Origin: Acidobacteriota bacterium
GTDB lineage: Bacteria > Acidobacteriota > UBA890 > WLXD01
Assembly: GCA_965248695.1 (NCBI GenBank)
Contig: CBDFKD010000002.1
Coordinates: 5,161,691-5,225,690, forward strand
Direction of reading: 5' to 3'
DNA: 64,000 bases
Part shown: positions 1,377 to 58,827 of the stretch, piece after piece
Layout of the letters: every line of letters begins with the position of its first letter
Position numbering within the stretch: the stretch's first letter is position 1
Notes under the pieces: model-generated
Database searches by the model: none
What the model saw: the letters and a program-made list of their open reading frames with translations, nothing else
Told to the model about the DNA's origin: nothing
Made by a program: the position numbers and the translations under genes

Positions 1377-1834
1377 GGCGGCGACGGTTGAGGGGCATGC
1401 ACCTCGGCCAGGGACCTGCTCTGGAGCTCGACGACCGGTGTAGTCAACGGCCTGCGGCTAAGAGGTTTCTGACCGCCGTGCACGCGAGCCTGGCTACGGT
1501 GCATACCCCTCAACCGCCGCCGCCGCGATCGTCGGAGGACCCCCAGTCTGGGGGGACGGCAATGCCGCAGTCACGACGGAGTCCGCAGGCGGAGGGGCAA
1601 AGTCCTTCGGGAGGTCTCGAGTGCCCGGGGCTCGGCCTGCAGGAGCGTGCTGGACACGGTGCTTCCGGCAACAGAGGACCGCGCGGACTCGAGGCGTTGC
1701 CGGGGAGGGAGTCGACACACTCGCTTCAGCCAGCATCGCGTGCACGGCGCTCAGAACCTATCGGCTTAGACGCGCAAGCAGAAGAGCTCCCTCAACGCCA
1801 GGCAGTGACGTTGGCAGAAGTGAGTGTGTCGACT
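1377..1834. repeat. Structured repeat element, copy 1 (3' tip displaced to 3248-3266 by the IS256 insertion)
   Basis: Starts 1 nt after the stop codon of the upstream gene. 27-bp outer stem, 1377-1403 pairing with 1498-1524. Second long helix, 1710-1734 pairing with 1810-1834. Palindrome CGTGCACG at 1477-1484 and 1739-1746. Homologous to 8972-9377. Confidence 0.6.
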
Positions 1835-3238
1835 GAGATATAACCGGAAGTTGTGGATGGGAGGAAAAAGAAAGGCGGCGTAACCTTCGCTGGGATCATC
1901 AACAACCAGCAGCCGGCTGTGGAGGCCGGGAAGGAGACGCCACTCGTGCTCAAGATTATCGGTGGATCGGACGCGGAGGAAGGACAGCTGACACTGGACG
2001 TCGATGAGCTCGCCCGGCAGGGCGCGCTGCAGATGCTGGCAACAGCACTGGAGTGGGAGGTTCAGGAGTATATCCAGAGCCACGCCGGGCAACTGGATGA
2101 AGCCGGCCGTCGGCAAGTGGTACGCAACGGTCGGGCTCGCGCACGCAAGATCACGTTGGGGTGCGGGACGGTGCAAGTAGCCGCGCCACGGGTCAACGAC
2201 AAGCGGCTCGACGAGCAGGGACTGAGGCAGCGGTTCAGCAGTCGGATCCTGCCGCCCTACATGCGGCGCTCGCCGAAGGTGGCGGAGGTGCTGCCGGTGC
2301 TGTACCTGCGGGGCCTGTCGACGGGCGACTTCAAGGAGGCGCTGCCGATCTTACTGGGACAGGAAGCCAGCGGGCTGTCGGCATCGGCGATCTGCCGGCT
2401 GACGAACGCCTGGAGCACGGAGTACGAGGCATTCCGGAAGCTGGATCTGTCCACCAAGCAGTACGTATACGTGTGGGCGGACGGTGTGCACTTCAACATT
2501 CGACTCGAGGATGATCGGCTGTGCACGCTGGTGATCCTGGGCGTTTTGCCGGACGGAACCAAGGAGCTCATCGCGGTCGAGGACGGGTATCGAGAGAGCA
2601 CCGAGAGCTGGGCGTTCGTGCTCCGGGAGCTGAAGCGTCGAGGCATGCGGGCGCCGCTCGTGGCAGTGGGTGATGGGGCGCTGGGGTTCTGGGCGGCGGT
2701 GCGGGATGTATGGCCCCAGACTCGAGAGCAACGATGCTGGGTGCATCGGCTTGGCAACGTGCTCGACAAGCTACCGAGGCGGCTGCAGGCCAAAGCCAAG
2801 CGCGCGCTGCACGAGATCATCGGTGCGCCAACGCGCGAGGATGCTCAGGAGGGCATGGCGCGGTTCGCAGCCGACTACGGCGCCAAGTACTCCAAGGCCG
2901 TGGCGTCGTTGCAACGCGACTCCGACAAGCTGCTGACGTTCTACGACTTCCCCGCCGACCACTGGGTTCATCTGCGCACGGCCAACCCGATCGAGTCGGC
3001 GTTCGCCACCGTACGCCTGAGACAACGCGTCACCAAGGGCGCCGGCTCACGCACCAAGGCGCTGACGATGGCATTCAAGCTCCTGGAGATGGCACAGCAA
3101 CGATGGCGCCGCATCAACGCTCCTCACCTCACTGCCCTCGTACTCGAGGGCGCCACATTCGTCGATGGAGTTCACCTGATCGCTAGCGAAGACGCCGCCT
3201 GAACAAATCCACCGATCCACAACATTTGCAAATAACTC
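1835..3238 (+). mobile_element. IS256-family insertion sequence (1404 bp)
   Basis: Imperfect terminal inverted repeats: GAGATATAACCGGAAGTTGTGGAT at 1835-1858 versus the reverse complement of 3215-3238 (17/24 match). Flanked by the 9-bp direct repeat GTGTCGACT at 1826-1834 and 3239-3247. Single transposase ORF. Confidence 0.85.
1853..3202 (+). CDS. IS256-family (Mutator-like) transposase
   Basis: Family-typical blocks are recognisable (ELARQGALQMLATALEWEVQEYI, YVWADGVHFNIR, CWVHRLGNVLDKLP, LRTANPIESAF). The true start may be the GTG at 1946, which lies 9 nt after GGAAGGAG. Confidence 0.9.
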   Translation: MDGRKKKGGVTFAGIINNQQPAVEAGKETPLVLKIIGGSDAEEGQLTLDVDELARQGALQMLATALEWEVQEYIQSHAGQLDEAGRRQVVRNGRARARKITLGCGTVQVAAPRVNDKRLDEQGLRQRFSSRILPPYMRRSPKVAEVLPVLYLRGLSTGDFKEALPILLGQEASGLSASAICRLTNAWSTEYEAFRKLDLSTKQYVYVWADGVHFNIRLEDDRLCTLVILGVLPDGTKELIAVEDGYRESTESWAFVLRELKRRGMRAPLVAVGDGALGFWAAVRDVWPQTREQRCWVHRLGNVLDKLPRRLQAKAKRALHEIIGAPTREDAQEGMARFAADYGAKYSKAVASLQRDSDKLLTFYDFPADHWVHLRTANPIESAFATVRLRQRVTKGAGSRTKALTMAFKLLEMAQQRWRRINAPHLTALVLEGATFVDGVHLIASEDAA

Positions 3239-3266
3239 GTGTCGACTCCCTCCGCTCACCGACCCC

Positions 3267-5261
3267 TCAGGTCCGCTCCGCCCACGGATACTGGAACTCC
3301 GGCCTGATCACGTCACCGATGAGGTCCTGAACGGCGCGATGCGCTTGATCCATCGCCGCATGCGTCAGGCTGGTGGCAGCGGCATCCGAGTTGGCCACGG
3401 CAATGCGACCAAATCGCTTCCGGCCGACCACCCAGGGGACCTCGTCGTAGCCCCATTCCGGGTCGTAGAGATCGTTGGCGCCGCCGGCATAGCCATGAGG
3501 CCATCGGTTGACGGTGATCGCGCTGATCTCCTCGGCGGGGTCGAAGCCGCCGCCTGCGAGGGCGCGCCCAAGCTCGTCGCGGATGCGGTACTCGAAGTAA
3601 TCGAACGATGTGGCGAGCAGCTCCTCGCGGCCGGCCCGGAACTGTTCCCTGGCAGAGAGACCAGGCTTGTGCGCGGGCATGCGCTGCAAGTGAAGCGGCT
3701 GAGGATCATCGGGGGTCCGGGCGCAGGTGTAGTCGCCGAGACTCCGATTCATGTCCAGCATCGCCGACCCGTGGTAGCAGCCGGGACCGTAGAAGCTGTT
3801 GATCCCGAGTGCCTCAAACGCCCTCCAGTTGCGCACCACGACGTTCGTGTAGACGAGCGGCTGGCGCACGGCCATCTTCAGCGCCGCCTTCTGCTCGTCG
3901 GGAAAGTCGGGACAGAGGTAGGGGATCATGGAGTTGTAGCAGGCCATGACGCAGGTGGCGCCGCGGGCCCGGTAGGCCTTGCCGTCACGCACGTAGGTGA
4001 CCTCGACCTCGCTGGCAGTGCGGCGCTCGCCGACGTGGCGGACGTTGACCACGGTGCTGTTGAGGCGGACGCGCGCGGCGCTGCCGTCTTCATCGATGGC
4101 GGCGTAGTCGACCGGCGTCGCCACCGAGTCTTCCATCGTCGTTCCCGGGAGAGCCTTCGGAATCAGCCATCTGACGATCAGTCGAGCGATCGCGGCATTG
4201 CCGTCGGGGAAGTGCACTCCCTCGCCGAAGTCGTTACCCTCGCCAAGCCAGCTCTCGGGCGGTCGCTCGAGACGCAGGCCGTCGAAGCCGGGCAGGGAGC
4301 CGGTGCGAAACGCTCCCCAGGCGCTATAGGAGTCGATCCTGGCCGCACCGTTGGAGCCGCCTTCAGCACGGCGCATGAAGAAGGGCATGACACCGGGATC
4401 GGCTTTGACGATCTTCAGAAGATAATCCTGGTAGCTCATCTTCCGCAGACGCGAGACCTTCTCATCGGAGGTCAATCCGGTTAGATAGTCGGTGTTGTCG
4501 TCGTAGGCGCGGGCGATATCGTGTTTGACGACATCAGTTAGCGGCGCATCGGCCAGGAACTGCGTCCATGTGAGCGTGCTACGAACCGAGCCCCAGCCGG
4601 CGGGATCTCCCACCGACAGGTGGTCGGCGCCGAACGTTTCCTGATCAAAGAAGACACCGGCCTGTAGGCCCATCTCGCGGTAAATGCTGCGATCGGCCGC
4701 CGTCGTCCGCAGGAAGCGTTGCTTGTCGATCCCGATGTCCTCCAGCAGCGCCTTTGCCTCGTGCGGGTAGCTGTTAGCGCCGTGGATCATCATCGTGCCG
4801 CCGTAGCCGATGACCAGCTTGCCATCGACCTCGAACTCGTTGCGCTTGGCGTGCCCGCCGAAGTCATCGTGATTGTCGAGAATCAGAATTCGCGCCTCCG
4901 GCAACGCCTTGCGGAAGAAGTACGCCGCCGACAACCCGCTCAGCCCACCACCGACGACGATGAGGTCGTAGCTCTCGCCGGTGTCCTCGGCGTTGTCCCA
5001 GGTCTTCCCATAGCGCATCTCGTGCGCTACTTCGTAGGAGCCCTCGTGACTGCCCCGCATGCCGGTGAGCCGCGGCGGGTAGTACTCGCCCGGCTGCGCT
5101 GCGGAAACGCCTGACCCGTTTGTCGAGCCCTTCGAGCCTGCGGGAGCCCCCGGCCTCCCGGCACCGACCAGGCCGCCGCCAATTGCGACGCTGGCCCCGT
5201 TGAGAAAATCCCGGCGGCTGATGTCACGGTCCATCCCGAGCTCTCGGTCAGTCTTGGTCAC
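3267..5261 (-). CDS. Tat-signal FAD/NAD(P)-binding oxidoreductase, spermidine dehydrogenase (SpdH)-like
   Basis: Twin-arginine motif SRRDFLNG at the N-terminus. Dinucleotide-binding motif VVGGGLSGL. 664 aa. SpdH-like call is from memory of the family. Confidence 0.6.
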   Translation of the reverse strand: MTKTDRELGMDRDISRRDFLNGASVAIGGGLVGAGRPGAPAGSKGSTNGSGVSAAQPGEYYPPRLTGMRGSHEGSYEVAHEMRYGKTWDNAEDTGESYDLIVVGGGLSGLSAAYFFRKALPEARILILDNHDDFGGHAKRNEFEVDGKLVIGYGGTMMIHGANSYPHEAKALLEDIGIDKQRFLRTTAADRSIYREMGLQAGVFFDQETFGADHLSVGDPAGWGSVRSTLTWTQFLADAPLTDVVKHDIARAYDDNTDYLTGLTSDEKVSRLRKMSYQDYLLKIVKADPGVMPFFMRRAEGGSNGAARIDSYSAWGAFRTGSLPGFDGLRLERPPESWLGEGNDFGEGVHFPDGNAAIARLIVRWLIPKALPGTTMEDSVATPVDYAAIDEDGSAARVRLNSTVVNVRHVGERRTASEVEVTYVRDGKAYRARGATCVMACYNSMIPYLCPDFPDEQKAALKMAVRQPLVYTNVVVRNWRAFEALGINSFYGPGCYHGSAMLDMNRSLGDYTCARTPDDPQPLHLQRMPAHKPGLSAREQFRAGREELLATSFDYFEYRIRDELGRALAGGGFDPAEEISAITVNRWPHGYAGGANDLYDPEWGYDEVPWVVGRKRFGRIAVANSDAAATSLTHAAMDQAHRAVQDLIGDVIRPEFQYPWAERT

Positions 5262-5353
5262 GGCATCCTCGGTCCGAGAAGTAAAATCGTGCGCTAGCGT
5301 TACAGAGACCTTACGTCAGCGCCAGAGGCGGCGATTGCGAGCGCCATATAGCA

Positions 5354-6052
5354 ATGAATGAAGTCATCGGTGCTGTTCATGAATTCCATGACGAAGAGTT
5401 CGCTGCAGGATGGGCTGACCGCTTCGTGCCGACACTCGAACGCCTGGAGTTGTTCGATGTCATGCTCGCCGAGCTGACGTCACGTGTGCCGCCGAGTGGC
5501 TGCGTGGTCGAGCTTGGAATTGGTCCAGGGTACTTGGCAGATCATCTGCTGAGAGCGATGTCCTCGGTTCGCTACTATGGCATCGATTCGTCCGATCCGA
5601 TGCTCGTCATCGCGCGGCAAAGGCTCGGGTCGCACTCAGCCCGAGTCACCTACATACAGGCTGATCTCCTAGCGGCCCATTGGTGGAGGGACATCCGCAC
5701 CCCGGTCGATGCCATCGTTTCAACCTGGGCGTTGCACGATCTGGGCTGCCAGGAGAGCGTCGAGGCAGTCTACGCTCGCTGCGCTCGCATGCTCCAGGAT
5801 GGGGGGATTCTGCTGAACGGAGACTTCATCAAGCCTGACAAGACCATGTACGAATATGAACCGGGTAGATTCGAGATAGCGCGACATCTCGCGATTCTGC
5901 GCCGTGTCGGGTTCACCAAGGCAGACTGCTTGGTCGTGCTCGAAGAGGAAACCGAATCGCCTACGGCGGCGCAGAACTACGCGTGCTTCAGGGCGGTAGT
6001 AGCCCGGACACATCAGAGCCCGGAGCCCGGCAGACGGAAAGGCTGCATATGA
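5354..6052 (+). CDS. Class I SAM-dependent methyltransferase
   Basis: Motif I VVELGIGPGY. Its stop overlaps the next start (ATGA at 6049-6052). Confidence 0.6.
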   Translation: MNEVIGAVHEFHDEEFAAGWADRFVPTLERLELFDVMLAELTSRVPPSGCVVELGIGPGYLADHLLRAMSSVRYYGIDSSDPMLVIARQRLGSHSARVTYIQADLLAAHWWRDIRTPVDAIVSTWALHDLGCQESVEAVYARCARMLQDGGILLNGDFIKPDKTMYEYEPGRFEIARHLAILRRVGFTKADCLVVLEEETESPTAAQNYACFRAVVARTHQSPEPGRRKGCI

Positions 6053-8971
6053 AGCGTCTCTTGTCGACCGCACCCGCACTGGCCAGTGCGATCATCCTCT
6101 CGCTCACCGCAGGCGCCTGTTCCAGTCCCGACCCTGCTGACCAGACGCCGTCCGGCTCGGCCGTCGATCGGCCGCTGATGCCGGACTGGGACGCGGAGCG
6201 CAGCGAACGACTGGCGTTTTCCGGCGAGCCGTTTCGCACACCGGAGGGCTTTCGCGTCGAGGAAGTTGCCGGCGACGATCTCATCGGATCGGCCGTGAAT
6301 CTCACGTTCGCGTGGGATGGCCGCCCCATCGTGGCGCTCGAGCAACGGGGACTCGTAATTCTCGACGACGGCGACGGAGACGGTCGCTACGATCGAATGA
6401 CACGGCTCTCAGAAGAGATCAGCACCGCTCACGGCCTTTATGTGCTCGGCCCGGACGATCTGCTCGTGCATGCCGACGGGCCGAGTGATGGCCCCGGCCT
6501 CTATCGTGTGAGCGGCTGGCAGGAGGGTCCCTCGGAGAGCACGGTCGAGCTGCTTCGACGGTCGCGCGGAGGGATCCAGGAGCACGGTCCCCACACGATC
6601 ACCCGAGGCCCCGACGGAGCAATTTACCTGCTCTTCGGCAATCATGCCGTTCCCGACATCGAGCCCTCACAGCGCTCACCACTTCGCGCGCTCCAAGAGG
6701 ATCAGCTACTACCCGTCATTCTGGATCCACGCGGTCATGCAAACACCATTCGTGCCCCGGGCGGAACCATCTGGAGAGTCGACCTCGAGGCCGACTCCTG
6801 GGAGCTGTTCGCCGGCGGGCTGCGCAATCCATTCGACATGGCCTTTTCTCCTGCCGGCGGCCTCTTTGTCTACGAGGCGGACATGGAGTGGGATCGCAGT
6901 CTCCCGTGGTACCGACCCACGCGGGTCCTGCACGCGATCCCGGCCGGCGACTACGGGTGGCGAACCGGCTCCGGCAAAGTAGCGTTCGATAACATCGATA
7001 CGCTCCCCAGCGTCGCCGACGTCGGCCGCGGCTCGCCGGTGGGCGTGGCCTTCTACCGCCATCACGCCTACCCCGCGGCGTTCGACGGCGCGTTATTCCT
7101 AGGCGATTGGGCACGTGGCCGCATACGCGTTCTCTTTCCGCAGGAGCACGGCGCTAGCTGGCAGGGGGAGGCCGTCGACTTCGTTCTTCGAGAGCCTCTC
7201 AATGTGACCGACCTCGCGGTGGGTCCTGACGGCCATCTGTATTTCACCATCGGCGGTCGCCAGACCACTGGTGGGCTGTTCCGAGTGGTCTACGACGGAT
7301 CCGACGGTGGCGCCCGAGGGAGCATGCAAGGCGGTCAGGGGAGCGCTGTCGAGAGGGCCTTGCACCAGCCAATGCCGCGATCCGCCTGGGGCCGCGCGGC
7401 CATCGCACAGCAGCGAGCTGCGGCCGGGGCAAGCTGGGGAGAAGGCCTGCGCGACGCTGTCGAGGACACCGATCGATCGAGGTTGGAGAGACAGAGCGCG
7501 CTGGAGATCCTGCAGCTCTATGGCCCGCAACCGTCTGTTGACGATTTGCGGAGATTCCTGGCGGCAGATGATGCCGGCGTACGAGCTACCGTCGTGACCC
7601 ACCTGGGAACCCGAACCGGCCCTAGCGTCTACCGCGCACTGGCAGTCGCACTGGAAGACCCGGATGCGCGCGTTCGGCGCCGGGCGGCAGAGGCGCTGGC
7701 GCGCTCCGGGAGCGCTGGAGAGGGCGCAACCTGCGGACATCGAAGCTATCCTCGCCGGCCTGGTCGGCCTTCTCGACGACGAGGATCGGTTCGTTCGGTA
7801 CGCTGTCCGCGAGACGCTCGCTCGAGTGGACCCGGATCGCTGGATCTCCAAAGTGGATCTCGCCGGGCCACCTTCGAACGCCGCGTTCGAGGCGATGCTT
7901 GCCTTGGTTCTCCGTCCGGGCTTTCCCGATGCCGAGCTCGTCTTCGAACATCTGCGCCTTCACGTCCAATCACAACCCGGCGAAGTACTGCTGGGCTCCT
8001 ATTTACGCGTGCTCGAGCTCGCCCTGGTGCGCTCCAGGGACGCTGGGGTCGACAGCGTGGAGCTCGAGGGACTGGGCCAGTCCATGTTGGATTGGTTCCC
8101 CACGCAACGCCGCGAGCACAACCGCAAGCTCGAGCGCATCCTCGCCTACCTGGCTCCGCCGGGGGCGGTGGACGCGCTGACGGCAAGGTTGGCGCTCGGC
8201 CGGAACCAGGAGGACGAGATCCACACCCTCTACGCCTTGCGAGCGATCGAAGGCGACTGGAGCGAGGCCCAGCGACAGAGCGTCGTCACCTGGTTCGATC
8301 GTGCTCGAGCGTTCACCGGCGCAGCCAGCATGGTGGGCTATATCGACGCCCTCTGGCAGCGGTGGCTAGCGAACCTCTCCGACGCCGAGCGCGTGGCGGC
8401 GGTCGAACGCCGGCAGGTCTGGTTGAGCGCCGAGCGGGACAGGATCGCGGCACTGGTGGCCGACGAAGACCTGCCGAGCGAGGATGAGCGCCGCATGCTG
8501 CGTCAGATGAGCTTCGATGAGCTGGCAGAGTACGTCGAATACGACGTCATGGCCTACGAGCGCTTCGACCCTGCGCACGGCGAACGCGTCTTCCAGCGTG
8601 CCCGTTGTGCCGACTGCCACGTTTTCGGCGATGTCGGTCGCGGTGGCGGACCCGACCTCTCGACCGTCGTCAGTCGCTTCAGGCGGCGCGAGATCCTGGA
8701 GTCGATCGTCTACCCGTCACGGGTGATCTCCGACCAGTACAGTGCCCTTCGCGTCCGCCTCCGTGACGGACGGAGATACGTCGGCATGCACGCCGCCGAG
8801 AGCGAAGAGGACCTCGTCCTGATCACCGCTACGGGCGAACGGGTCGTCCTGGACAAACAGCTGGTCAGCGAGCGCGAGCCGGCCGACGTATCCCTGATGC
8901 CGGAGGGTCTACTCGAGGCCATGAGCTTCGACGACTTGATGAGCCTGATGCGATACCTGGAAGAAGGGTAG
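6049..8971 (+). pseudogene. Frameshifted lipoprotein: beta-propeller-like domain + HEAT repeats + C-terminal cytochrome c (CxxCH)
   Basis: Lipobox LTAGAC after MKRLL. The reading frame switches from frame 1 to frame 2 near 7722-7724 within GAGGGCG. HEAT-like repeats continue across the switch (AAEALARSGSAGE / AQPADIEAILAGLVGLLDDEDRFVRY). Heme motif CADCH near the C-terminus. Confidence 0.65.
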
Positions 8972-9377
8972 GGCGGGCGGGTTCGAGCCCCAATGCGCCG
9001 TAACCAGGGACATGCCCTGGTGCTGGGTGAGCGGCGTAGTCTACGGCCTGGGGCACTGAGGTTTCCGGCCGCCGTGCACGCGAGCCTGGCTACGGCGCAC
9101 TGGGGCTCGAACCCGCCGCCGCGACCGAAGACACTTCTTGCCGGGCGGGCCGGTCGTGCCGCGAACTGAGACGCCGCGGCCCAGCGGTTCCGACGATCGC
9201 CCTCTTCCGTATTCCGGAGGCTGCCGCGACCTCAGGCGCTGCCGGGGAGGAAGTCGACACACCTCCTTCAACCAGCATCGCGTGCACGGCACACACCACC
9301 TAAAGGCGATGACGCGCGAGCAAAGGAGTTCCCCTAGCGCCAGGCGATGACGCTGGTAGAAGGAGGTGTGTCGACTT
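8972..9377. repeat. Structured repeat element, copy 2 (uninterrupted)
   Basis: Starts 1 nt after the stop codon at 8969-8971. Outer stem ~8974-8999 pairs with 9094-9119. Second helix 9251-9276 pairs with 9352-9377. CGTGCACG at 9073-9080 and 9281-9288. Confidence 0.6.
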
Positions 9378-9419
9378 GCTCCGCCCTCGTCTCAATCCCG
9401 CTCGCCTGATACCGAAAGA

Positions 9420-10901
9420 TCAATCGCCCGTTTGGCCGAACGTCTCCATGTACCACTTCACGAACCGAGCCGGGCTCCCCTCGTGAGTGGCGTAGCGGCC
9501 AGCGCTGTAGCCGCCCGACTGGATACCGAGGTGGTTGTTGCCGGTAAGCCAGATGTCTTCCATCGTCGTGACGTGCCACAGCGCCTTGAGCTCGTCCGGA
9601 TCGTAGTCGCGCCCCTCGACCGCATCCGGATGCACGAGCCAGATGACCTCGTTGTCGGTTCGGTCGTGCGCACGCGGTGTGTATCGGGCGATCATGACGT
9701 GGTCGTCGTAGCCCTGCCAGTAACCGGTTTGCCAGCGGGTCGTGGCGATATCGGTCTCATGGGTCCACGCGATCCTGGTTGGCAGGAGAGGAGCGACGGG
9801 GTTGCCATCCATGGACCCAGTGACGAACCCCGGGTTGAGCTCGCCGTCAACGTCGCCATAGCCGCCCATGCCTGACGCCCGTCGTTCGGCCGCTGCCGGG
9901 ACCCACTCGTCGACCGCCGTCGCGTGGGCGGCCTTCTGTTCGTCGGTGCGCTCTTCGTCGTAGTTGTGCGCTTTCACCAAGGACCCGTGCGCTGGTCCGC
10001 AGTGGTAGCACTCGATGAAGTTCTCCGTCGCGAGCTTCCAGTTCGACTTCAGCGGGTAGTACTCGCGGGCCGCGACCTTGAGCTTGTCGAAGCGGTAAAT
10101 TTCGTTCAGCGCTCGCACACGAGTCACGGTCGATTCGAACTCGGGGGGCGAATCCGATCGAGATAGATTGATGAAGATCTGGCCAGCGGCGACGCGCACA
10201 TGGCAGGGGAGAAGTCCGTTGTCCGCCGGGTCGAAATCGTCCTGCATGCCATAGGCGTAGATCAGACTTCCTTCGGTGTCATACGTCCAGGCGTGGTACG
10301 GACAGCGGAACACCGGCGAGTTGCCGTTCTGGCCAAGCTGCTTCACTGACAAGCGTGGATCCTGCGGCCTCGTATCCGCGTCGTGGCGGCACACCCGTGA
10401 GCCGCGGTGCCGGCAGACATTGTGGAAGGCGCCGACACTTCCGGTCTGGCTACGAACGAGCAGGATGCTCTCCGAGCGCCCGAACTCGAAAACGAAGAAA
10501 TCGCCCGGGCTCGGAATGCGGCTCGCCTGGTCGACGTACTGCCAGAGATTCTCCGCCAGGAAAGCCTCCTCCACCGCATAGTGCTTCGGGTCCAGGTAGT
10601 ACTCGGCCGGAATCGTGGTGCCTTCTTTCCAGCCGTTGATGCCGGCGTTCTCGGGCACGGTTACTGCGAACCGTGGCGCACCCTTGCCACCGTAGCCCGG
10701 TGCTTCCGCCGGCAAGTCTTTGCGGGCAACCGCAACCGGCGAGCCGATCGCATTCGCTGTTGATGGCCCCTGTGGTGGCGCACCGAACAGGGAGTTGGGC
10801 AAAGCGATTGCCGCGGTCCCAGCGGCTACCGAGGACTTGGCGAACGTGCGGCGGCTTACGCGCTGTCCGCCGTTGACGTCGTGACTGTCCTCGTTGCTCA
10901 T
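9420..10901 (-). CDS. Rieske [2Fe-2S] non-heme iron oxygenase alpha subunit with Tat signal
   Basis: SRRTFAKSS twin-arginine motif. Rieske CRHRG...CPYHAW. Mononuclear iron motif ECYHCGPAH. Confidence 0.8.
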   Translation of the reverse strand: MSNEDSHDVNGGQRVSRRTFAKSSVAAGTAAIALPNSLFGAPPQGPSTANAIGSPVAVARKDLPAEAPGYGGKGAPRFAVTVPENAGINGWKEGTTIPAEYYLDPKHYAVEEAFLAENLWQYVDQASRIPSPGDFFVFEFGRSESILLVRSQTGSVGAFHNVCRHRGSRVCRHDADTRPQDPRLSVKQLGQNGNSPVFRCPYHAWTYDTEGSLIYAYGMQDDFDPADNGLLPCHVRVAAGQIFINLSRSDSPPEFESTVTRVRALNEIYRFDKLKVAAREYYPLKSNWKLATENFIECYHCGPAHGSLVKAHNYDEERTDEQKAAHATAVDEWVPAAAERRASGMGGYGDVDGELNPGFVTGSMDGNPVAPLLPTRIAWTHETDIATTRWQTGYWQGYDDHVMIARYTPRAHDRTDNEVIWLVHPDAVEGRDYDPDELKALWHVTTMEDIWLTGNNHLGIQSGGYSAGRYATHEGSPARFVKWYMETFGQTGD

Positions 10902-10965
10902 CTACTTCGCCTCTCGACTATTCGAACGTTGGTCGACTCGCGCTTTCGCGAACTCGCCGAGCTTC

Positions 10966-11011
10966 AACGAACGAAAACCGCGGGAGCCGACGAGCAGATC
11001 GGCTCCCGCGG
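10966..11011 (-). terminator. Rho-independent terminator downstream of the second Rieske gene
   Basis: 13-bp stem, 10978-10990 pairing with 10999-11011. On the minus strand it is followed by TTTTCGTTCGTT. Confidence 0.7.
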
Positions 11012-11036
11012 ATTCACTAGCCAACTGACAGAAAGC

Positions 11037-12557
11037 TCAATCGCCGGCCTGGACAATCTCCTTCATGTACCAGTTGATGAAGCTCGACGGCCCGCCCTCG
11101 CGCGTTCCATACCGGCCGCCGCTGTATGCGCCGGACTCGACGCCGTCGTGGTTGTTGTCGGTGATCCAGATATCCTCCTGGATCGTGACGTGCCACAGCC
11201 CCTTGACGTGTTCCGGGTCGTAGTCACGGCCCTCGACTGCGTCGGGGTGCACCAGCCAGACGATCTCGGCGTCAGTGAACTTCTCGTTGCGCGGCGTGAA
11301 CCGAACCACCATGACGTGATCGTCGTAGAACTGCCAGTATCCGGTCGACTCTCCGGTGGTCGCGATGATCGTACGGTGGTCGCCTTCCTTTCTGCCGGGC
11401 AGCCAAGGTGCAGCCTGCTTGCCGTCGATCGTGCCAGTGACAAACCCCGGGTTGAGCAGACCAGTGAGGTTCTCATACTGGGGCTCGCCGCCCATACCTC
11501 CTCCGCCCATGCCGGCATCTTCATCGTCGCGACGACGACGGCTGTCCTCCGGAACCCAGTCCGCCACGGCAGCAGCCTTTTCGTTCATCTGCTGGTCGCT
11601 GAGGTCGTGGTCCCAATTGTGCGTCGTCACCAGGGGTCGGTGGGCCGGGCCGCAGTGGTAGCACTCCTTGAAGTTCTCGAGCGCCAGCTTCCAGTTGGCG
11701 TTGATTGGGTAGGACTCGCGCGCCGCGACCTTGAGGTCTTTCAAGCTGTACTCGGGGGCCAGCCGCCTGAGGGCGGTAACTGCCGAATCGAAATCCGGCG
11801 GCGTGTCTGACTTCGACAGGTTGACGAAGATCTGGCCTTCGGTAACCCGCGTGTGGCACGGGAGCAAACCGTTGTCGGCCGGGTCGAAGTCGTCCTGCAT
11901 GCCGTAGGCGTAGATAAGGCTGCCCTCGGTGTCGTATGTCCAGGCGTGGTACGGGCAGCGGAACACGGGTGAGCTGCCGCTCTGGCCGAGCTGCTTGACC
12001 GACAGACGCGGATCGCTCGGCTTCGAGTCGGAGTCGTGACGGCACAATCGCGATCCGCGGTGACGACAGACGTTGTAGAACCCGCGCACCTCGTTGTCCT
12101 GGCCTCGAACGATCAGAATGCTCTCGGAGCGACCGAACTCGAAGACGTAGAAGTCGCCCGGGTTCGGAATGCGGCTCTCCTGGTCGGTGTACTGCCAGAA
12201 GTTCTCCCCGACGAATTTCTCGTCGGCTTCGAAATGCTTCGCCTCGATGTAGTACTCGGCGGGAATCGTCAGGCCCTCTTTCCAGCCGTTGACGCTCGCC
12301 TTCTTGGCCACCGGGCCGGTGAGCGGGGCTGCGCCCCGGCCGCCGTAGCCAATGTTCTCGTTGCGCGCTTCGACGCGCGCGGCGCGGCCATAGGTGGCCG
12401 TGGTTGCGGTCGTCGTTGCGGCCGTTGCCGGGGTAGCGCCGAAAAGCGATTTCGGGAGAGCGACGGCGGCGGTGCCCGCGGCAACCGAGGACTTGGCGAA
12501 CGTGCGGCGGCTTACGCGCGGCCCGCCGTTCTTGTCGTGGTCGTCCTTCTTGCTCAT
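11037..12557 (-). CDS. Rieske [2Fe-2S] non-heme iron oxygenase alpha subunit with Tat signal (paralog)
   Basis: Start chosen at the ATG at 12557 (MSKKDDHD), 6 nt after AGGAGA. Carries SRRTFAKSS, CRHRG...CPYHAW and ECYHCGPAH. Confidence 0.8.
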   Translation of the reverse strand: MSKKDDHDKNGGPRVSRRTFAKSSVAAGTAAVALPKSLFGATPATAATTTATTATYGRAARVEARNENIGYGGRGAAPLTGPVAKKASVNGWKEGLTIPAEYYIEAKHFEADEKFVGENFWQYTDQESRIPNPGDFYVFEFGRSESILIVRGQDNEVRGFYNVCRHRGSRLCRHDSDSKPSDPRLSVKQLGQSGSSPVFRCPYHAWTYDTEGSLIYAYGMQDDFDPADNGLLPCHTRVTEGQIFVNLSKSDTPPDFDSAVTALRRLAPEYSLKDLKVAARESYPINANWKLALENFKECYHCGPAHRPLVTTHNWDHDLSDQQMNEKAAAVADWVPEDSRRRRDDEDAGMGGGGMGGEPQYENLTGLLNPGFVTGTIDGKQAAPWLPGRKEGDHRTIIATTGESTGYWQFYDDHVMVVRFTPRNEKFTDAEIVWLVHPDAVEGRDYDPEHVKGLWHVTIQEDIWITDNNHDGVESGAYSGGRYGTREGGPSSFINWYMKEIVQAGD

Positions 12558-12816
12558 TTGCGTTCTCCTGGGCCGCGGCAGCGGTGATCGGTCTGGAAGT
12601 CCAGAAGTTCTCCCTCGGCGCCTGGTGCCCGGAAGCGGCACTCACCCCACTTACGCACGCGCAGAGAACCTACTTTCACTTGTCTAGGTACTACGGTTGC
12701 GGCCGCACTACAACTGGCCGGGCGCCGACCTCCGTATCTTTATCCGGAGCCGGAGCCGCAGCACCTCCTGCTGCATCTATCATCCTTCCATGCCGGTGAA
12801 CGGTCGACCGTACCCC

Positions 12817-14630
12817 TCAGGTACGTTCCGCCCAGGGGTATTGGAACTCGGGACGAATCACGTCGGTCAGCAGCTCCTGCACGGCGCGGTGTGCCTGCTC
12901 GAAGGCCGCCTGGGTTAGCGAGATGGCTGCGGCGTCCGAGTTGGCGATCGTGATGCGCCCGAAACGCTGTCGCCCAACGACCCATGGCGCCTCGTCATAA
13001 CCCCAGTCGGGGTCATACAGGTCATTGGCGCCGCCCGCATAGCCATGCGGCCAGCGGTTGACGGTGATCCCGGCAATGTCGCGCGCCGGGTCGAACCCGC
13101 CGTCGCCGAGCGCCCGGCCGAGCTGGTCGCGGATGCTGCGCTCGAAGGTCTCGAAGCTTGTCGCCTGAAGCTCCTCGCGTCCAGCGCGAAACTGATCTCG
13201 CGCCGACAGTCCGGGCCGAATGGGAAGGCGCTGCAGCCACAACAGGATGGGCTCGTCGGGAGAGGCGGAATGGCGGTAGTCCCCGACGTTGACGCCCCAG
13301 TCCAGATCGATGAACTCGTGGAACCCACCCGGGCTGTGGATGGCACCGACACCCAGGTTGGCAAACGCCGTCCAGTTCTCGATCGCAACCTGCGTGTAGA
13401 CGTACGGCTTCCGTACCGCCAGCTTCAGGGCCTCCTTCTGTGCCTCCGGAACCTCCGGACACAGGTACGGAATCATTGCGTTGTAGCAGGCCATTACGCA
13501 GCTGCCGCCGCCGACGCGGACCGCCCGCCCGTTCTGCACGTAGGTCACCGCGACCTCGTTGGCTGCGCGTCGCTCGCCCGCGTGGCGCGCACTCACCACC
13601 GTGCTGTTGAGACGGATGCGTACCGGATTGCCGGCCTTGTCCAGCTGCGAGTAACGGATCGGCGTGGTTACCGAATCCTCCATCGTCGTCCCCGGCAGCG
13701 CCGCCGGAATGAGCCAACGGACCATTAGCCGCGCGATGCTGGCATTGCCGTCCGGGAAGTGAATTCCCTGGAATGGGTTGTCGCCCGGGGCAGCGTTGCG
13801 CGCCGGACGTTCGAGACCCTCATCTTTCGCAGTCGGGCGATCTTCTCCTCGTCGCTCAACTCCGGTAAATAGTCGCGGTTCTCGGTATAGAGCTGCAGGA
13901 TGCCCGCCTTGGCGGCTTCCGATAGGGGTGTTTGGGCAAGGAAGTCGGTCCAGCGACGGCGCGCCTGGGCACCGCGTGCCCGCCTTGGCTCGCCGACGAC
14001 CAGGCGGTCTGTGCCGAAGGTCTCGCGGTCGAAGAACACGCCGCCGCGCAGACCCATCTCACTGTAGAGGTCGTTCGCCGAGCCGCCAGGGAAGCGCTCC
14101 GCGCTCACGCCGATATCCTCGAGGAGATCCTTGGCCTCCGCCGGATAGTACCCGGTGATGAATTGGGTGCCGCCGTAGCCGATCAACTGCCGGTCGCCGA
14201 CGGTGAACTCGACGCGTTTGGCATGCCCACCGAAGTCGTCATGATTGTCGAGAACGAGCACCCGGGCTTCGGGGAGCGCCTTGCGAAAGTAGTAGGCGGC
14301 GGCAAGGCCACTGAGCCCGGCGCCGACCACCACCAGGTCGTACTGCTCGCCCGATTCCTCTGCCTCGTTCCAGGTCTTGCCGTAGCGCATCTCGTGCGCC
14401 ACCTCGAAGGAACCGTCGTGGCTGCCGCGCATGCCGGTGAGCCTCGGCGGGTAGTAGCTTTCCGGGTCCTGTGTGGGCGTCGCATGGCTGCCTGGGGGCT
14501 GGCCGGTAGGCACGGTGGCGGAGGCTCCAATCGCTGCTGCCGAGCCTCCAACGGCGACGCTGCTGCCGTTAAGGAAATCCCTTCGAGTGATTCGGCGGTC
14601 CATACCAAGCTGCTTGTCAGTCCTTTTCAC
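12817..14630 (-). pseudogene. SpdH-like Tat oxidoreductase paralog with internal out-of-frame deletion
   Basis: Two ORFs (13725-14630 and 12817-13725) are colinear with the 664-aa paralog. About 55 residues are missing after RLRKM, and the frame changes at about 13800. Confidence 0.75.
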
Positions 14631-14778
14631 GGTCGAGTCCCCTTCTCCAGTTTTCGATCGGATACGGCTCGGTATGGACTTCCTGCGCCGGGATACTGGA
14701 CTTCTTGCGCCAGATTGGAAACCCTGTACGGCACTCAGCGAGTTTCTTTGCGCGGTCCCACCGGTGAGGAGGTACGAG

Positions 14779-15288
14779 ATGCGGCAGGTTCAAGGAATGG
14801 GGAAGCTCATAGTGGTCATGGTCGCGGCGGTGTTTGTCGTTGCTTGCGGCGACAGCGAGCCAGCACCGGAGCCGGAGCCAGAGCCCGAAGCGGCAATGCC
14901 GACCGCTGAGGACGAAGTGCGTGAACGGATGATGGAGTTTGTCGGCGCGTATGGCTCCAACGATGTGGAGGGCTACATCGGCTCGTTCGCGGCCGATGGG
15001 ACGCAGTGGTGGCCGGGTCGACGGGTGACGCGCGCCGAGTACCACGATCTGTGGAGCGGCGTTGTCGGCGGCGGCGGTGGTCTGACGGAAGCCAACATAA
15101 GCGATCTACAGATCCACACATCGCCCGGCGGCGACGGCGCGGTGGCATCGTACCTGCTGAAGGTGAAGCGCATCTCGGACGATCCCGAAAGCGTGGATGC
15201 CACTTACCAGATGTCGGCGACTTGGTTTAAGCGCGACGGAAAGTGGGAGATCATTCATTTCCACTGGAACCCTGTTACCAGCGGCTAG
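14779..15288 (+). CDS. NTF2-like (SnoaL/DUF4440-type) lipoprotein
   Basis: ATG at 14779, 6 nt after GAGGAGG. Signal with lipobox VVAC. C-terminal WEIIHFHW is typical of the fold. Confidence 0.5.
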   Translation: MRQVQGMGKLIVVMVAAVFVVACGDSEPAPEPEPEPEAAMPTAEDEVRERMMEFVGAYGSNDVEGYIGSFAADGTQWWPGRRVTRAEYHDLWSGVVGGGGGLTEANISDLQIHTSPGGDGAVASYLLKVKRISDDPESVDATYQMSATWFKRDGKWEIIHFHWNPVTSG

Positions 15289-34370: not shown

Positions 34371-34384
34371 CGAGCCGGTAAGCG

Positions 34385-34966
34385 ATGGCCACGACCAGCA
34401 CTTCCTTCCGGTTCGACGCCACGCTCCCGGCAGCACAGCGCGCCGCTGCCCGCCATGCGGCACGGCTCGTCAAGGGAGTCTCAGAGGAGACCCGTCGGGG
34501 TATTCGTGCAGCCATCGTGCGCGCCATCCGCGAGGGGCAGCCTCCGTTCGAGGCGGCACGCGCGATCCAACCGATGATCGGACTGAACGCGCAACAGGTC
34601 CAAGCGGCGCTGAATTACCGCGCCGAGCTGATCGACCAGGGGCTGACGCTGCAGTTTGTCGACCGCAAGGTGGACCGCTACGTGCAGAAGAAGCTTCGGG
34701 AGCGAGCCCGAACGATCGCCCGCACCGAGATCATGAACGCGCTCAATGCGGGGCAGGAAGAATCCTGGCGTCAGGCGCAGCGGGCGGGGCTGTTGCCCAA
34801 GGGGCAGAAGAAAGTATGGATCGTCACGCCGGATGATCGGCTCTGCCCGATTTGTGAGCCGATGCGTGACGCCGTGGCGGAGGTTGGTAAGCCGTTTCCG
34901 ATTCCGGGGCCACCGGCGCATCCTCGGTGCCGGTGCGCGGTGGGGATCGCTACAGACGGCCGCTAG
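34385..34966 (+). CDS. Head morphogenesis protein, Mu F / SPP1 gp7-type domain
   Basis: ARTEIMNALN and the C-terminal HPRCRC motif are typical of minor capsid/head morphogenesis proteins. Confidence 0.65.
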   Translation: MATTSTSFRFDATLPAAQRAAARHAARLVKGVSEETRRGIRAAIVRAIREGQPPFEAARAIQPMIGLNAQQVQAALNYRAELIDQGLTLQFVDRKVDRYVQKKLRERARTIARTEIMNALNAGQEESWRQAQRAGLLPKGQKKVWIVTPDDRLCPICEPMRDAVAEVGKPFPIPGPPAHPRCRCAVGIATDGR

Positions 34967-37507: not shown

Positions 37508-37681
37508 ATGGCTGCAATACCGACTCAGAAAGTCCGTCGCAAAAGCGATGGGGCGGAGTGCGTGATCAATCGAGAAGAGTTCAACGAACACGACTACGAG
37601 GAGATAGCCAAGCCGAAGGCTAGAGGCGGTGGCAAGCCGAAGTCCAAGGCGCAGCCTACGAAAAGGCGCAAGGGGAACTGA
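37508..37681 (+). CDS. Small basic protein (57 aa), absent from the ORF track
   Basis: ATG lies 7 nt after AGGTGA. Lys/Arg-rich C-terminus. Its stop overlaps the next ATG (TGATG). Confidence 0.4.
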   Translation: MAAIPTQKVRRKSDGAECVINREEFNEHDYEEIAKPKARGGGKPKSKAQPTKRRKGN

Positions 37682-38220
37682 TGGCGACCTCGGTACTGAA
37701 TGCGACCGTCGGCGGGGCTTGGAGCAACACCTACGCCACGCTGGGGGAGGCCGAGCAGTACCACGAGGACCGGGTCGCGTCCGGTACGGCGTGGACAGCC
37801 ACGAGCACCGAGGAGGATGCCAAGACCAAGGCGCTGTTGATGGCGACGCTGCTGCTGGACCGAGCCTTTGAGTGGAGCGGGCACGCGGTGGATCGGAACC
37901 AGGCGCTGCAATGGCCCCGCACGGGGATGCTCAAGCCGACCGGGTTTGAGCACGTCGCCTCCACCGAGATCCCGGTGCAGATCAAGAACGCGCAGGCGGA
38001 ATACGCCCGGCAACTGCTGGCCGATCTCGGCCGCACGGATGATTCCGATATCGAGACCAAAGGCATCACCAGGATCAAGGCAGGGCCGGTGGAGTTGGAG
38101 TTCAAAGACTCCGTGTTTGCCAAGGCGGTGCCGGACCTGGTGGTGCTGCTGCTCCCGGAGCACTGGTACTACGCGGTACGGGGCCGTGCCTCCGGTACGC
38201 GACAGCTGGTGAGGGCGTAG
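37681..38220 (+). CDS. Head-tail connector / adaptor protein (DnaT-like DNA-binding fold family)
   Basis: Called from position and conserved blocks (LGEAEQYH, ALQWPRTG). Confidence 0.5.
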   Translation: MATSVLNATVGGAWSNTYATLGEAEQYHEDRVASGTAWTATSTEEDAKTKALLMATLLLDRAFEWSGHAVDRNQALQWPRTGMLKPTGFEHVASTEIPVQIKNAQAEYARQLLADLGRTDDSDIETKGITRIKAGPVELEFKDSVFAKAVPDLVVLLLPEHWYYAVRGRASGTRQLVRA

Positions 38221-41436: not shown

Positions 41437-41801
41437 TCCGGCTGTATCGCCACTTCGAGGGTATTGGTGATGAGCCGGTGCCCGAGGCGTGGTTCATCAG
41501 TCGGCTATGTGAGGAGTTTGGATGCACGCCACTGCAGGTGGTGGAGGATCTCGAAAACGACCCGGAGCGCTGGATGCTGCGCATCCTGCCGCTGCGGGCT
41601 TTGGCGCGCGCGTACCAAAGCTACAAGGCGGCTCAATCCAAGAAAGAACTTGGCAAGGCCATCCATCAAGACCCGTGGGTGCGGCGGGTCGTCGAGATCG
41701 ACTTTGCCGAGAAGCGACGGCAGATAGAAGCCAACAAGCAAGGCGGCGACGAGGATGATTCCGATCGGGGTGCTCGAGGCGATCCTGCGGCTGCGGGATG
41801 A
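41370..41801 (+). CDS. Tail assembly chaperone extension (T-like ORF in the -1 frame)
   Basis: Overlaps the G-like ORF by 67 nt in the -1 frame. Ends 2 nt before an in-frame ATG of the tape measure gene. Confidence 0.4.
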   Translation: MGRSGNHRSDHASVRGSGGGSLVRLYRHFEGIGDEPVPEAWFISRLCEEFGCTPLQVVEDLENDPERWMLRILPLRALARAYQSYKAAQSKKELGKAIHQDPWVRRVVEIDFAEKRRQIEANKQGGDEDDSDRGARGDPAAAG

Positions 41802-52098: not shown

Positions 52099-52455
52099 AT
52101 GAGCGACGACAAGCGCCTGATTGCCGTGTTGGGAGGGCTAACAGGCGTCGGTGTCCTGCTGCTACTGCTGGGGCTGGCCTCCGAGGTCCGCACGGCGACC
52201 GGTGTCTCACCCACGAATCTGGGGCTCGTGCTACAGGCATTCGGCAAACGCCTTCTGGCCGTGACGCTTGGCCTGGGGGTGCACCAGGTGATCGACCGCG
52301 CCTTCCTGCCGTTCCTGCGCATTGAGCAGGCCTTTCGCCGGGAGGGCAAGTTCTCCACCGATGCCATGAGCAATGAGGAGCGCATGGTGTGGGTCGCCGG
52401 TTGGTTCTTGACCTTGGCGGTCATCGTCCTCGCCTTCGCCTCGGCGGCGAGCTAA
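52099..52455 (+). CDS. Membrane protein (holin/antiholin candidate)
   Basis: Hydrophobic helices at both the N- and C-termini. Confidence 0.4.
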   Translation: MSDDKRLIAVLGGLTGVGVLLLLLGLASEVRTATGVSPTNLGLVLQAFGKRLLAVTLGLGVHQVIDRAFLPFLRIEQAFRREGKFSTDAMSNEERMVWVAGWFLTLAVIVLAFASAAS

Positions 52456-52973
52456 TGGCCGGCGCGATCCAGGTCACAGCCGCGCTGTTGGCGGTGTTCT
52501 ATGGCGAGCTCGCCGGCGCGGGGTTGCCACTCGATCCGTTCGAGTCGCGGTTTCGGGCGCAGATCCAAGTGGAGTCGGCTTGGCGGCCCGAGGCGCGCTC
52601 CAAGTACGCCGCCGGACTCGCACAGTTCACCCCTGCCACGTGGAGCGACATCGCGCCGTACACCGAGCCCTCGTGCGCTGGCGCCCCCGAGACTGACCCG
52701 GCCTGCTCGATCCGCTCGCAGATCGTGTACATGCGCCGACTATTGATCCGATACAGCGACTCGGCGACCCCGGAGGACCAGTGGGCGTTTGCCTCGGCTG
52801 CCTACAACGGCGGTCCTGGATGGATCAGCCGCGAGAAGGCGCGGTGTGCGGCGGCTCCAGACTGCGAGCCGCGCCGCTGGTGGGGCCACGTCGAGCTGCA
52901 CTGTTTACGCGCCGCGTGGGCGTGCCGTGAAAACCGCGCCTACCCGCGCAAAATCGTCGCGCGGCTGCCGTAG
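52455..52973 (+). CDS. Lytic transglycosylase (SLT domain) endolysin
   Basis: QVESAWRPEARSKYAAGLAQFTPATW carries the catalytic ES and GLAQF signature. Confidence 0.7.
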   Translation: MAGAIQVTAALLAVFYGELAGAGLPLDPFESRFRAQIQVESAWRPEARSKYAAGLAQFTPATWSDIAPYTEPSCAGAPETDPACSIRSQIVYMRRLLIRYSDSATPEDQWAFASAAYNGGPGWISREKARCAAAPDCEPRRWWGHVELHCLRAAWACRENRAYPRKIVARLP

Positions 52974-57032: not shown

Positions 57033-57119
57033 GCCATCGTGGCGAAATCGGCAAACGCACCCGGTTTGCGACCGGGCGGCTGTCTAGGCCTTGTGGGTTC
57101 GAGTCCCACCGATGGCACC
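57033..57119 (+). tRNA. Class II (long variable arm) tRNA, Leu-type body, anticodon UGC
   Basis: Acceptor 57033-57039 pairs with 57110-57116. 3-bp D stem with an 11-nt loop. Anticodon stem 57060-57064 pairs with 57072-57076, loop TTTGCGA. 16-nt variable arm. T arm GTGGG TTCGAGT CCCAC. Discriminator A followed by CC. Confidence 0.7.
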
Positions 57120-58752: not shown

Positions 58753-58827
58753 GGCCTCGTGGACAACAGACGGTCAAGTCGCGGGACTGGAAATCCCGAG
58801 ATCCCGGTTCGACACCGGGCGGGGCCT
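58753..58827 (+). tRNA. Class I tRNA, Cys-like body, anticodon GGA
   Basis: Acceptor GGCCTCG pairs with CGGGGCC (one G-U pair). Anticodon stem CGGGA/TCCCG with loop CTGGAAA. 4-nt variable loop. T arm CCCGG TTCGACA CCGGG. Discriminator T. CCA not encoded. Confidence 0.65.

Follow-up and report, generated by a model that had tools for sequence, protein, structure and literature searches.

Two copies of a non-coding element lie between convergent genes

The window, a 64-kb stretch of Acidobacteriota DNA that was analysed as a whole, harbors two copies of a non-coding element of ∼415 bp, each located in the gap between two convergent genes. Reading and aligning both regions placed copy 1 at positions 1377-1834, resuming at 3248-3257, and copy 2 at positions 8972-9389. 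The original prediction had located two copies here, each starting behind a stop codon and filling the space up to the convergent gene, and re-reading of the sequence bore this out, coordinates included. Upstream of copy 1, a plus-strand ORF (33-1376) ends with a TAG stop codon at 1374-1376, a junction that is also found in a related genome described below. The plus-strand ORF upstream of copy 2 ends at 8971, likewise with TAG (8969-8971). Both copies begin one base past this codon within the common string GGTAG-GGCGG (the hyphen marks the start of the element). Because TAG terminates 13 of the 41 ORFs in the window, its presence at both element starts is not significant alone. At the other side, the copies end 9-30 nt short of the stop codon of the convergent gene, which is located at 3267-3269 beyond copy 1 and at 9420-9422 beyond copy 2, where a 30-nt unconserved tail precedes it.

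The genes upstream of the two copies are unrelated to each other: one has no Pfam match, and the other encodes the C-terminal cytochrome-c-like end of a large DUF7133/HEAT protein. The convergent genes encode a FAD/NAD-binding protein and a Rieske oxygenase. Copy 1 is split by an insertion sequence (IS) of the IS256 family in plus orientation (1835-3238), whose transposase ORF (1853-3202) matches PF00872 with an E-value of 1.2e-58. This IS is accompanied by a 9-bp duplication, GTGTCGACT, the second copy of which occupies positions 3239-3247, so that the interruption covers 1835-3247 altogether. The IS is foreign to the element, and the corresponding site of the related genome is uninterrupted and free of it.

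Each copy consists of two inverted hairpin modules

Two separate long helices had originally been described for each copy. Both are present, but the helix-2 units turned out to be diverged reverse complements of the helix-1 units: once flipped, all four units of the window align end to end as versions of one module of ∼150 nt. For example, the motif CCAGCATCGCGTGCACGGC of module 2 corresponds to the minus strand of module 1 with two mismatches. Each copy is composed of a first module with its head pointing outward, an unconserved linker of 123-179 nt, and a second, inverted module whose head again points outward. Within a module, a near-perfect stem of 31-37 bp closes a loop of 69-76 nt. The helices of the original prediction are therefore real as stems but longer than described, and they are homologous throughout.

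In copy 1, the 5′ arm of the module 1 stem (1377-1412) is 36 nt long, with 31 of the 36 positions paired to the 3′ arm at 1489-1524, as delimited by inverted-repeat search and stem alignment. The 76-nt loop between them (1413-1488) contains the core GCCGTGCACGCG at 1475-1486. The linker (1525-1703) is followed by module 2, with its 5′ arm on the plus strand at 1704-1737, a 69-nt loop at 1738-1806 and the core CGCGTGCACGGC at 1737-1748. Its 3′ arm begins at 1807-1834, where it is cut by the IS, and the outermost part of this arm together with the element end (CCCTCCGCTC) lies at 3248-3257. Copy 2 repeats this arrangement without interruption. Here, module 1 comprises the 5′ arm (8972-9008), a 76-nt loop (9009-9084) with the core GCCGTGCACGCG at 9071-9082, and the 3′ arm (9085-9122); a linker unlike that of copy 1 follows at 9123-9245. 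Module 2 consists of the 5′ arm on the plus strand (9246-9279), a 69-nt loop (9280-9348) with the core CGCGTGCACGGC at 9279-9290, and the 3′ arm including the outer end (…CTCCGCCCTC) at 9349-9389.

The four stems top all inverted repeats of the window. For module 1, the repeats are 1377-1412/1489-1524 in copy 1 (36 nt, 86% complementary) and 8967-9008/9085-9126 in copy 2 (42 nt, 86%); for module 2, they are 1710-1737/1807-1834 in copy 1 (28 nt, 86%) and 9246-9279/9349-9382 in copy 2 (34 nt, 91%). In addition, the 27-mer CCGCCGTGCACGCGAGCCTGGCTACGG occurs twice, compared with 0.00 expected occurrences. The feature is real and far beyond chance.

The only block that is invariant across all eight modules compared in this study is GTGCACGCG, which lies within the palindrome CGTGCACG. 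The stems are homologous among modules, yet both of their arms have accumulated numerous changes. The two module heads give the composite its mirror-image ends, (T/G)AGGGCGG…CCGCCCT. Directly before the stem of module 1, GTAG is present in all four copies from the two genomes, and module 2 has GAG or GTGAG at this position. We detected neither a target-site duplication nor a flanking direct repeat around either copy or their orthologues. [quoted passage not shown]

The arms of the stems change together

The claim that pairing is preserved despite sequence divergence was confirmed, and it now extends to orthologous copies in two species. In an alignment of eight modules, about four of which are independent, 90.1% of the stem cells of the inner 19 stem pairs are paired and 14 of these 19 pairs have changed on both sides. 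Controls in which the partner was slid by one to three columns gave 27-45% paired cells. A set of six modules behaved in the same way (89.6% paired cells, changes on both sides in 9 of 16 pairs, and 27-44% paired cells after sliding).

The most direct view of these changes comes from module 1 of copy 1, in which GCCAGG/CCTGGC in one genome corresponds to GCGGGG/CCCCGC in the other; moreover, both arms show the loss of one T-A pair and the gain of one G-C pair. Since CCAGG changed together with the distal CCTGG and not with a nearby CTCTGG, the long stem is the relevant pairing. Over the four orthologous module pairs, we counted five compensated substitution pairs and two compensated indel pairs, next to ∼16 single-arm differences across ∼134 pairs. 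If the arms evolved independently, with ∼10% of arm sites changed, ∼0.5 compensated pairs would be expected. The joint change of the two arms is thus unusually clear.

Compensation of this kind can arise at the DNA level. A single event of template switching inside a hairpin can yield multi-base or indel "compensation" and thereby create or repair a stem (Mönttinen and Löytynoja 2022, PMC8794818). REPIN hairpins, which are DNA repeats, also show compensatory changes (Bertels and Rainey 2011, PMC3116915). The multi-base blocks and paired indels of module 1 in copy 1 match the template-switching pattern, and quasipalindrome correction by this route would account both for the change from GCCAGG/CCTGGC to GCGGGG/CCCCGC and for the paired indels (PMC8794818). 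Template switching is a mutational mechanism and not an element family, however, and it leaves the conservation of the loop and of whole modules unexplained. Based on this mechanism and the REPIN precedent, the covariation demonstrates a maintained foldable inverted repeat, not an RNA gene. Of the earlier description as a functional RNA or single-stranded DNA fold, the maintained fold therefore stands, while covariation alone is no proof of an RNA. The element is a clean natural illustration of a methodological point, namely that template switching can mimic covariation wherever such an argument is made for an RNA gene.

Both copies are maintained at orthologous loci

Both copies have counterparts at the same loci in another Acidobacteriota genome, a metagenome-assembled genome (MAG) whose flanking genes are ∼88% identical to those of the window. 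The orthologue of copy 2 was found at positions 5574-5990 of sequence L077 and is the same element as that at 11521-11935 of L142, which derives from the same MAG contig; the orthologue of copy 1 lies at 19371-19833 of L142. Being located at orthologous loci in two genomes, both copies are older than the split between these genomes.

Comparison of the orthologues revealed a strongly uneven distribution of identity. In copy 2, the arms of module 1 are 89-92% and its loop 91% identical, and the arms and loop of module 2 reach 88-94% and 83%, respectively. In copy 1, the values are 97-100% for the arms and 90% for the loop of module 2, and 76-78% and 75% for the arms and loop of module 1. Between the modules, linker identity drops to 54% in both copies, in agreement with the original description of the linker as unconserved, and it falls further to 40% (copy 2) and 21% (copy 1) in the tail leading to the convergent gene. 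The flanking genes show 88.5-92% identity at copy 2 and 88% at copy 1, with 76-85% and 73-76%, respectively, at codon position 3. Three of the four modules therefore display coding-like conservation (83-100%), the exception being module 1 of copy 1 (75-78%). These three are as conserved as amino-acid-determining positions, while unconstrained intergenic DNA has essentially decayed. Given conservation so far above that of the adjacent non-coding DNA, the element is not decaying junk. No hidden small ORF or other coding signal was found in it, and since the substitutions between orthologues show no period of three, the constraint is not a coding one. Within the linker, an island just upstream of module 2, TTCCG…GAGGCG.TGCCGGGGAGG, is conserved.

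Individual copies can nevertheless be lost or damaged. In a strain represented by L134, which is 99.7% identical to L077, the copy 2 element is gone because of a 563-bp deletion that also removed 141 bp of the upstream gene and whose junction shows imperfect microhomology. This absence is an imprecise loss and not an excision. Together with the IS tolerated in copy 1, the deletion shows that individual copies are dispensable. Module 1 of copy 1 has five unpaired stem positions in the genome of the window, compared with two in the relative; along with the IS, this suggests that constraint on copy 1 of the window has been relaxed.

Searches for relatives and known families

At gathering thresholds, Rfam 15 matched nothing in the element, and the only matches in the window were two tRNAs located elsewhere. 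In E-value mode, generic long-hairpin miRNA models appeared with 29-38 bits, far from their gathering thresholds of 168-268. The element therefore matches no catalogued RNA of Rfam 15, in line with the original prediction, in which it could be assigned to no familiar RNA family. We also found no match to the element by blastn against plasmids and phages or by a pattern scan of viral contigs. A 25-nt degenerate core pattern gave ten matches in JGI metagenomes, all of them due to chance. Among the matches listed for a 17-nt core pattern in genome contigs, 118 were chance hits and at least one was a true locus, namely L077. A chimeric six-frame peptide query for spurious ORFs over other copies returned nothing.

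The covariance-model scan that had been proposed at the outset was carried out with a model built from six modules. It recovered the four modules in the 64-kb window and no others there. No module was detected in ∼330 kb of DNA from relatives (L130-L141), which had been sampled via homologues of the IS256-like transposase and the Rieske protein and include IS-rich contigs with the same IS256-like element. Matches of the model in a Burkholderiales MAG (L116) were rejected as a generic hairpin and coding DNA. A match to the end of a known IS or transposon had been named in advance as a result that would speak against a novel element, and none was obtained from plasmids, phages, viral contigs or the IS-rich loci of relatives.

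Several other candidates were discarded. A TnpB/IscB-type guide RNA was rejected because the upstream genes are not homologous. A link between the variable stem segments and a tRNA (57033-57117) was rejected because the 13 of 14 matching positions correspond to chance level; within the window, these segments have no other match. Readings as an attC site, a retron or an intrinsic terminator were rejected on anatomy. Integron attC sites share the position after a stop codon, the imperfect inverted repeats and the preservation of structure over sequence, and they are recognised as folded single strands. Their core is RYYYAAC…GTTRRRY, however, whereas module 1 has GTT…AAC in reversed order and module 2 has neither; attC sites measure 57-141 nt, whereas the module is larger and has a big conserved loop; and they are found in same-direction cassette arrays beside intI, whereas the element forms no array and no integrase is adjacent.

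A different origin to be weighed is a selfish non-autonomous transposable element, either a MITE or the pair of ends left by a deleted IS, without a function for the host. The hairpins would then serve as transposase recognition sites, possibly as single-stranded DNA for a HUH enzyme of the RAYT or TIRYT type. The two dispersed copies with unrelated flanks and their mirror-image ends, (T/G)AGGGCGG…CCGCCCT, would agree with such an origin, and insertion between convergent genes does the least harm. The same holds for the GTAG immediately ahead of the module 1 stem, which recalls GTAG-tagged REPs (PMC3733652), and for the missing target duplication, which is expected of HUH transposition; TIR-associated tyrosine transposases are indeed encoded in Acidobacteria. 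On the other hand, two species have both copies fixed at orthologous positions, and three of the four modules display coding-like conservation amid decayed non-coding DNA, whereas a dead MITE should decay. Variation of the arm sequences between copies is unexpected if a transposase reads the arms, module 2 carries GAG instead of GTAG, and the 563-bp deletion is imprecise, with no precise presence/absence polymorphism observed. Moreover, neither an autonomous relative nor a module-like IS end turned up in IS-rich sequence from relatives (125 kb), in plasmids or in phages, and no Y1 transposase or RAYT was present among the 20 small ORFs of the window that were scanned. We therefore regard a purely selfish element as unlikely.

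Folding, expression signals and strand bias

Compared with shuffled sequences, the RNA fold of the copy 2 region (8960-9400) has z-scores of –7.25 and –7.28 on its two strands, and the fold of positions 8965-9395 as single-stranded DNA reaches –8.66. The loops of 69-76 nt, taken by themselves, do not exceed shuffled sequences in folding, neither on the strand that is sense to the closest gene (z-scores of –0.3 to –1.7) nor on the opposite one (0 to –1.3), and consensus folds revealed no internal loop structure that is significant or covarying. Conserved in sequence and devoid of a significant fold, the loops would also suit recognition by a protein. A sigma-70-like promoter was found neither in nor beside copy 1 or copy 2. 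Likewise, no U-tract terminator or terminator-like site exists inside or beside either copy; GC-rich sequence follows the stems, and neither copy combines a short GC-rich hairpin with the U/T tract of an intrinsic terminator.

The mismatches within the stems are not distributed evenly between the strands. On the gene-sense strand, there are 12 events of the A·C type versus two to three of the G·T type (binomial p ∼0.01-0.04). The strand that tolerates mismatches as wobbles is the minus strand for module 1 and the plus strand for module 2, in both cases pointing outward from the linker. Because this better-pairing strand is the antisense or distal one, the bias fits poorly with a simple model in which each gene uses the hairpin of its own 3′-UTR, and because it flips between the modules, replication asymmetry does not explain it. 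The wobble-compatible bias suggests that the strand pointing outward, as seen from the linker, is the active one. Two paired cis-antisense RNAs, or a barrier dedicated to stopping convergent read-through, would agree better with this orientation than a REP-like relic. Stated in full, the module would then be an undescribed functional RNA or single-stranded DNA hairpin with a conserved apical domain of ∼70 nt around GUGCAC, arranged in mirror-image pairs at convergent junctions, a reading that we consider quite unlikely.

The same bias bears on the narrower proposal that each module encodes a small structured RNA or a cis-antisense RNA, transcribed outward from the linker (module 1 from the minus strand and module 2 from the plus strand). 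Exactly on these outward strands the mismatches are G·U-compatible (12 versus two to three), the long stem covaries, and purifying selection acts on three of the four modules. The conserved island of the linker is located just upstream of module 2, and such an RNA, having no Rfam match, would be new. This proposal conflicts with the lack of a sigma-70-like promoter and of a terminator in or beside the copies, with the linker, the expected site of a promoter, being mostly unconserved (54%), and with the loops, whose internal structure is neither significant nor covarying. Bacterial sRNAs do not usually contain near-perfect duplexes of 31-37 bp, which would be substrates of RNase III. Template switching in DNA readily explains the compensated indels and multi-base blocks (PMC8794818). 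Overall, we judge an RNA gene to be distinctly improbable.

Alternatively, the modules could be recognised as duplex DNA by a protein, for instance a site-specific recombinase, an invertase or a nucleoid protein, which would read the palindromic core CGTGCACG and, in module 1, also GTAGTCTAC. Both arms would then be required for recombination or binding, which would keep the long inverted repeats identical, and recombination between inverted arms would homogenise them as well. This would agree with the location of the invariant block GTGCACGCG inside the palindrome and with loops conserved in sequence and not in fold. However, the strand bias of the mismatches is unexpected for duplex recognition, and the arm sequences vary from site to site. 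No integrase or recombinase gene lies next to either copy. A loop of 69-76 bp bordered by 35-bp repeats between the 3′ ends of genes includes no evident switchable content and no promoter, and the loop orientation is identical in both species. Duplex recognition sites are accordingly very unlikely.

Relationship to palindromic repeats and a possible function

The architecture of the element comes closest to REP doublets, REPINs and BIMEs. Like these, it is extragenic and non-coding, lies between convergent ORFs and consists of two inverted palindromic units with a less conserved spacer. It also has in common with them a hairpin kept by compensatory changes and long vertical persistence at fixed loci. 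The parallels to GTAG-tagged REPs are specific: these repeats likewise occupy gaps between convergent ORFs, occur as inverted dimers and in many cases provide a TAG stop codon (Di Nocera et al. 2013, PMC3733652). In our element, the upstream gene takes its stop codon from the GTAG at the base of module 1. The original prediction had set the element apart from simple MITEs and terminators. For terminators this holds, as no U-tract terminator is present, but the contrast to MITEs was too strong in view of an architecture so near to that of REP doublets, REPINs and BIMEs.

The differences are equally clear. REP and REPIN units are palindromes of 20-40 bp, whereas the module is a hairpin of ∼150 nt with a conserved loop of 69-76 nt. 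The arms are the conserved part of a REP, but here the arm sequences vary between copies. REPs and REPINs occur in tens to hundreds of copies per genome, together with a cognate RAYT gene that the repeats flank, whereas we found four modules in the window, none in the ∼330 kb from relatives, and no RAYT among the 20 small ORFs scanned. REP hairpins bear GTAG or CGTC at their 5′ foot; here module 1 has GTAG, but module 2 does not. Judged by this comparison, the element resembles GTAG-tagged REPs yet falls outside that family.

A similar mixture of shared and divergent traits applies to ERIC/IRU-type and other long-hairpin MITEs, which are also intergenic imperfect palindromes, of 120-150 bp. 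ERIC/IRU-type MITEs lie in transcribed intergenic regions, form a long RNA hairpin and are often better conserved than expected. However, ERIC-type elements have conserved terminal repeats, TA target duplications and many copies, whereas our element shows no duplication, its arms are variable and its modules always occur as an inverted pair.

Based on these observations, we tentatively interpret the element as a composite palindromic repeat with a REPIN/BIME-like architecture, restricted to its lineage and retained under selection, which would act as a single-stranded nucleic acid hairpin, most likely at convergent 3′ ends. A near-perfect stem of 31-37 bp is commoner in palindromic DNA repeats than in bacterial RNA genes. 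We propose that the module hairpins would act in RNA produced by read-through past the 3′ ends of the two convergent genes, as a barrier, a stabiliser or an insulator. By analogy to REP-, BIME- and REPIN-type repeats, such stable hairpins would stop exonucleases or polymerase and insulate the two genes from each other. The arms would stay complementary through template switching within the hairpin, by which one arm is copied from the other, and selection against unpaired stems would add to this effect. As for the spread to two loci, the GTAG foot and the absent target duplication would fit a single-strand route of the HUH/RAYT-like type. The element is best classed among the structured palindromic repeats of bacteria, as a new variant.

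The persistence of a non-coding element at two given loci across species is unusual, as are its origin in a poorly studied phylum and its stems with compensated substitutions as well as compensated indels in modules of which three out of four are conserved like coding DNA. If the modules act as RNA, they would represent a new 3′-end or antisense device for convergent genes, which would be relevant to GC-rich bacteria without classical terminators. If they are REPIN-like, this class would be extended to far larger hairpins with conserved loops. The copy number of two loci in 64 kb, both of them common to the relative, appears low and in this respect unlike that of REP and REPIN families.

Strand bias of stem mismatches and a block change in one loop

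The mismatches within the long stems were tallied over eight hairpin modules, comprising the four modules of the repeat copies c1 and c2 (window 1377-1524, 1704-1834, 8972-9122 and 9246-9382) and their orthologues. They are strand-biased: read in the sense of the nearest gene, about 12 independent events are of the A·C type, compared with two to three of the G·T type. Since the bias on the gene-sense strand is toward A·C, the wobble-tolerant strand is the minus strand for module 1 and the plus strand for module 2. All four copies of module 2 share a conserved T·T mismatch in the stem, 7 nt away from its loop end. Within the module 2 loop of c2, a 5-nt block on the plus strand reads CCCTA in the window (9328-9332), whereas GGAGG is found in the c2 orthologue of the relative (L077:5931-5935); the respective reverse complements are TAGGG and CCTCC. 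This clustered multi-base change is of the kind produced by template switching.

An insertion sequence within c1

In c1, module 2 is interrupted in the outer part of its 3′ arm by an IS256-family insertion sequence (1835-3247, including the second copy of the target duplication), which carries a transposase ORF (1853-3202; PF00872). Its terminal inverted repeats consist of GAGATATAACCGGAAGTTGTGGATGG and an imperfect partner, and the 9-bp target duplication GTGTCGACT is present at 1826-1834 and 3239-3247. In the relative, the c1 orthologue (locus L142) shows the site without the insertion sequence and reads GTGTCGGCT. Several relatives of the transposase (269-449 aa), belonging to the same 90% cluster, are encoded on the 5.76-Mb contig that also carries the window.

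Gene upstream of c2 and apparent absence of the element in a near-identical contig

The large DUF7133/HEAT/cytochrome-c gene upstream of c2 (5983-8971) is broken into one ORF at 5983-8487 and a second, overlapping one in another frame at 7664-8971, and its orthologue in the relative is a single intact ORF of 1048 aa (L077:2430-5576). The split in the window is an apparent frameshift, reflecting either a pseudogene or a sequencing error. L134, a locus from another assembly that is 99.7% identical to L077, lacks 563 bp (junction at L134:9141-9146 versus L077:5436-5998). This stretch contains the entire c2-orthologous element and the terminal 141 bp of the upstream gene, and the microhomology at the junction is only imperfect. 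Either the strains truly differ in this region, or the absence is an artefact of assembling a site rich in hairpins.

Genomic neighborhood of the repeats

Gene content was compared between window 3267-14789 and L142:6043-19363. The elements have paralogous FAD-protein and Rieske-oxygenase genes to either side: the FAD-protein genes at 3267-5261 and roughly 12817-14789 (the latter in two overlapping frames, with approximate gene limits), the Rieske-oxygenase genes at 9420-10901 and 11037-12641. The window Rieske protein and the IS256 transposase are 100% identical to the database proteins P0250 and P0246, both encoded on a contig of 5,761,898 bp (NCBI and ENA). Between c1 and c2, the window harbors a methyltransferase gene (5354-6052), whereas a sulfatase gene and a 111-aa ORF are found in the relative; the gene content between the copies thus differs between the species.

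Farther downstream, a prophage-like block extends from about 30000 to 55000. It encodes a Mu F-like head protein (34382-34966), a DnaT-like ssDNA-binding protein (37624-38220), an SLT transglycosylase (52377-52973) and a 1627-aa ORF (41728-46611) that, judged from its size alone, could be a candidate tape-measure protein. After the block come two tRNA genes (57033-57117 and 58753-58827); beyond these lies an IS1-like/DDE transposase ORF (58984-59895).
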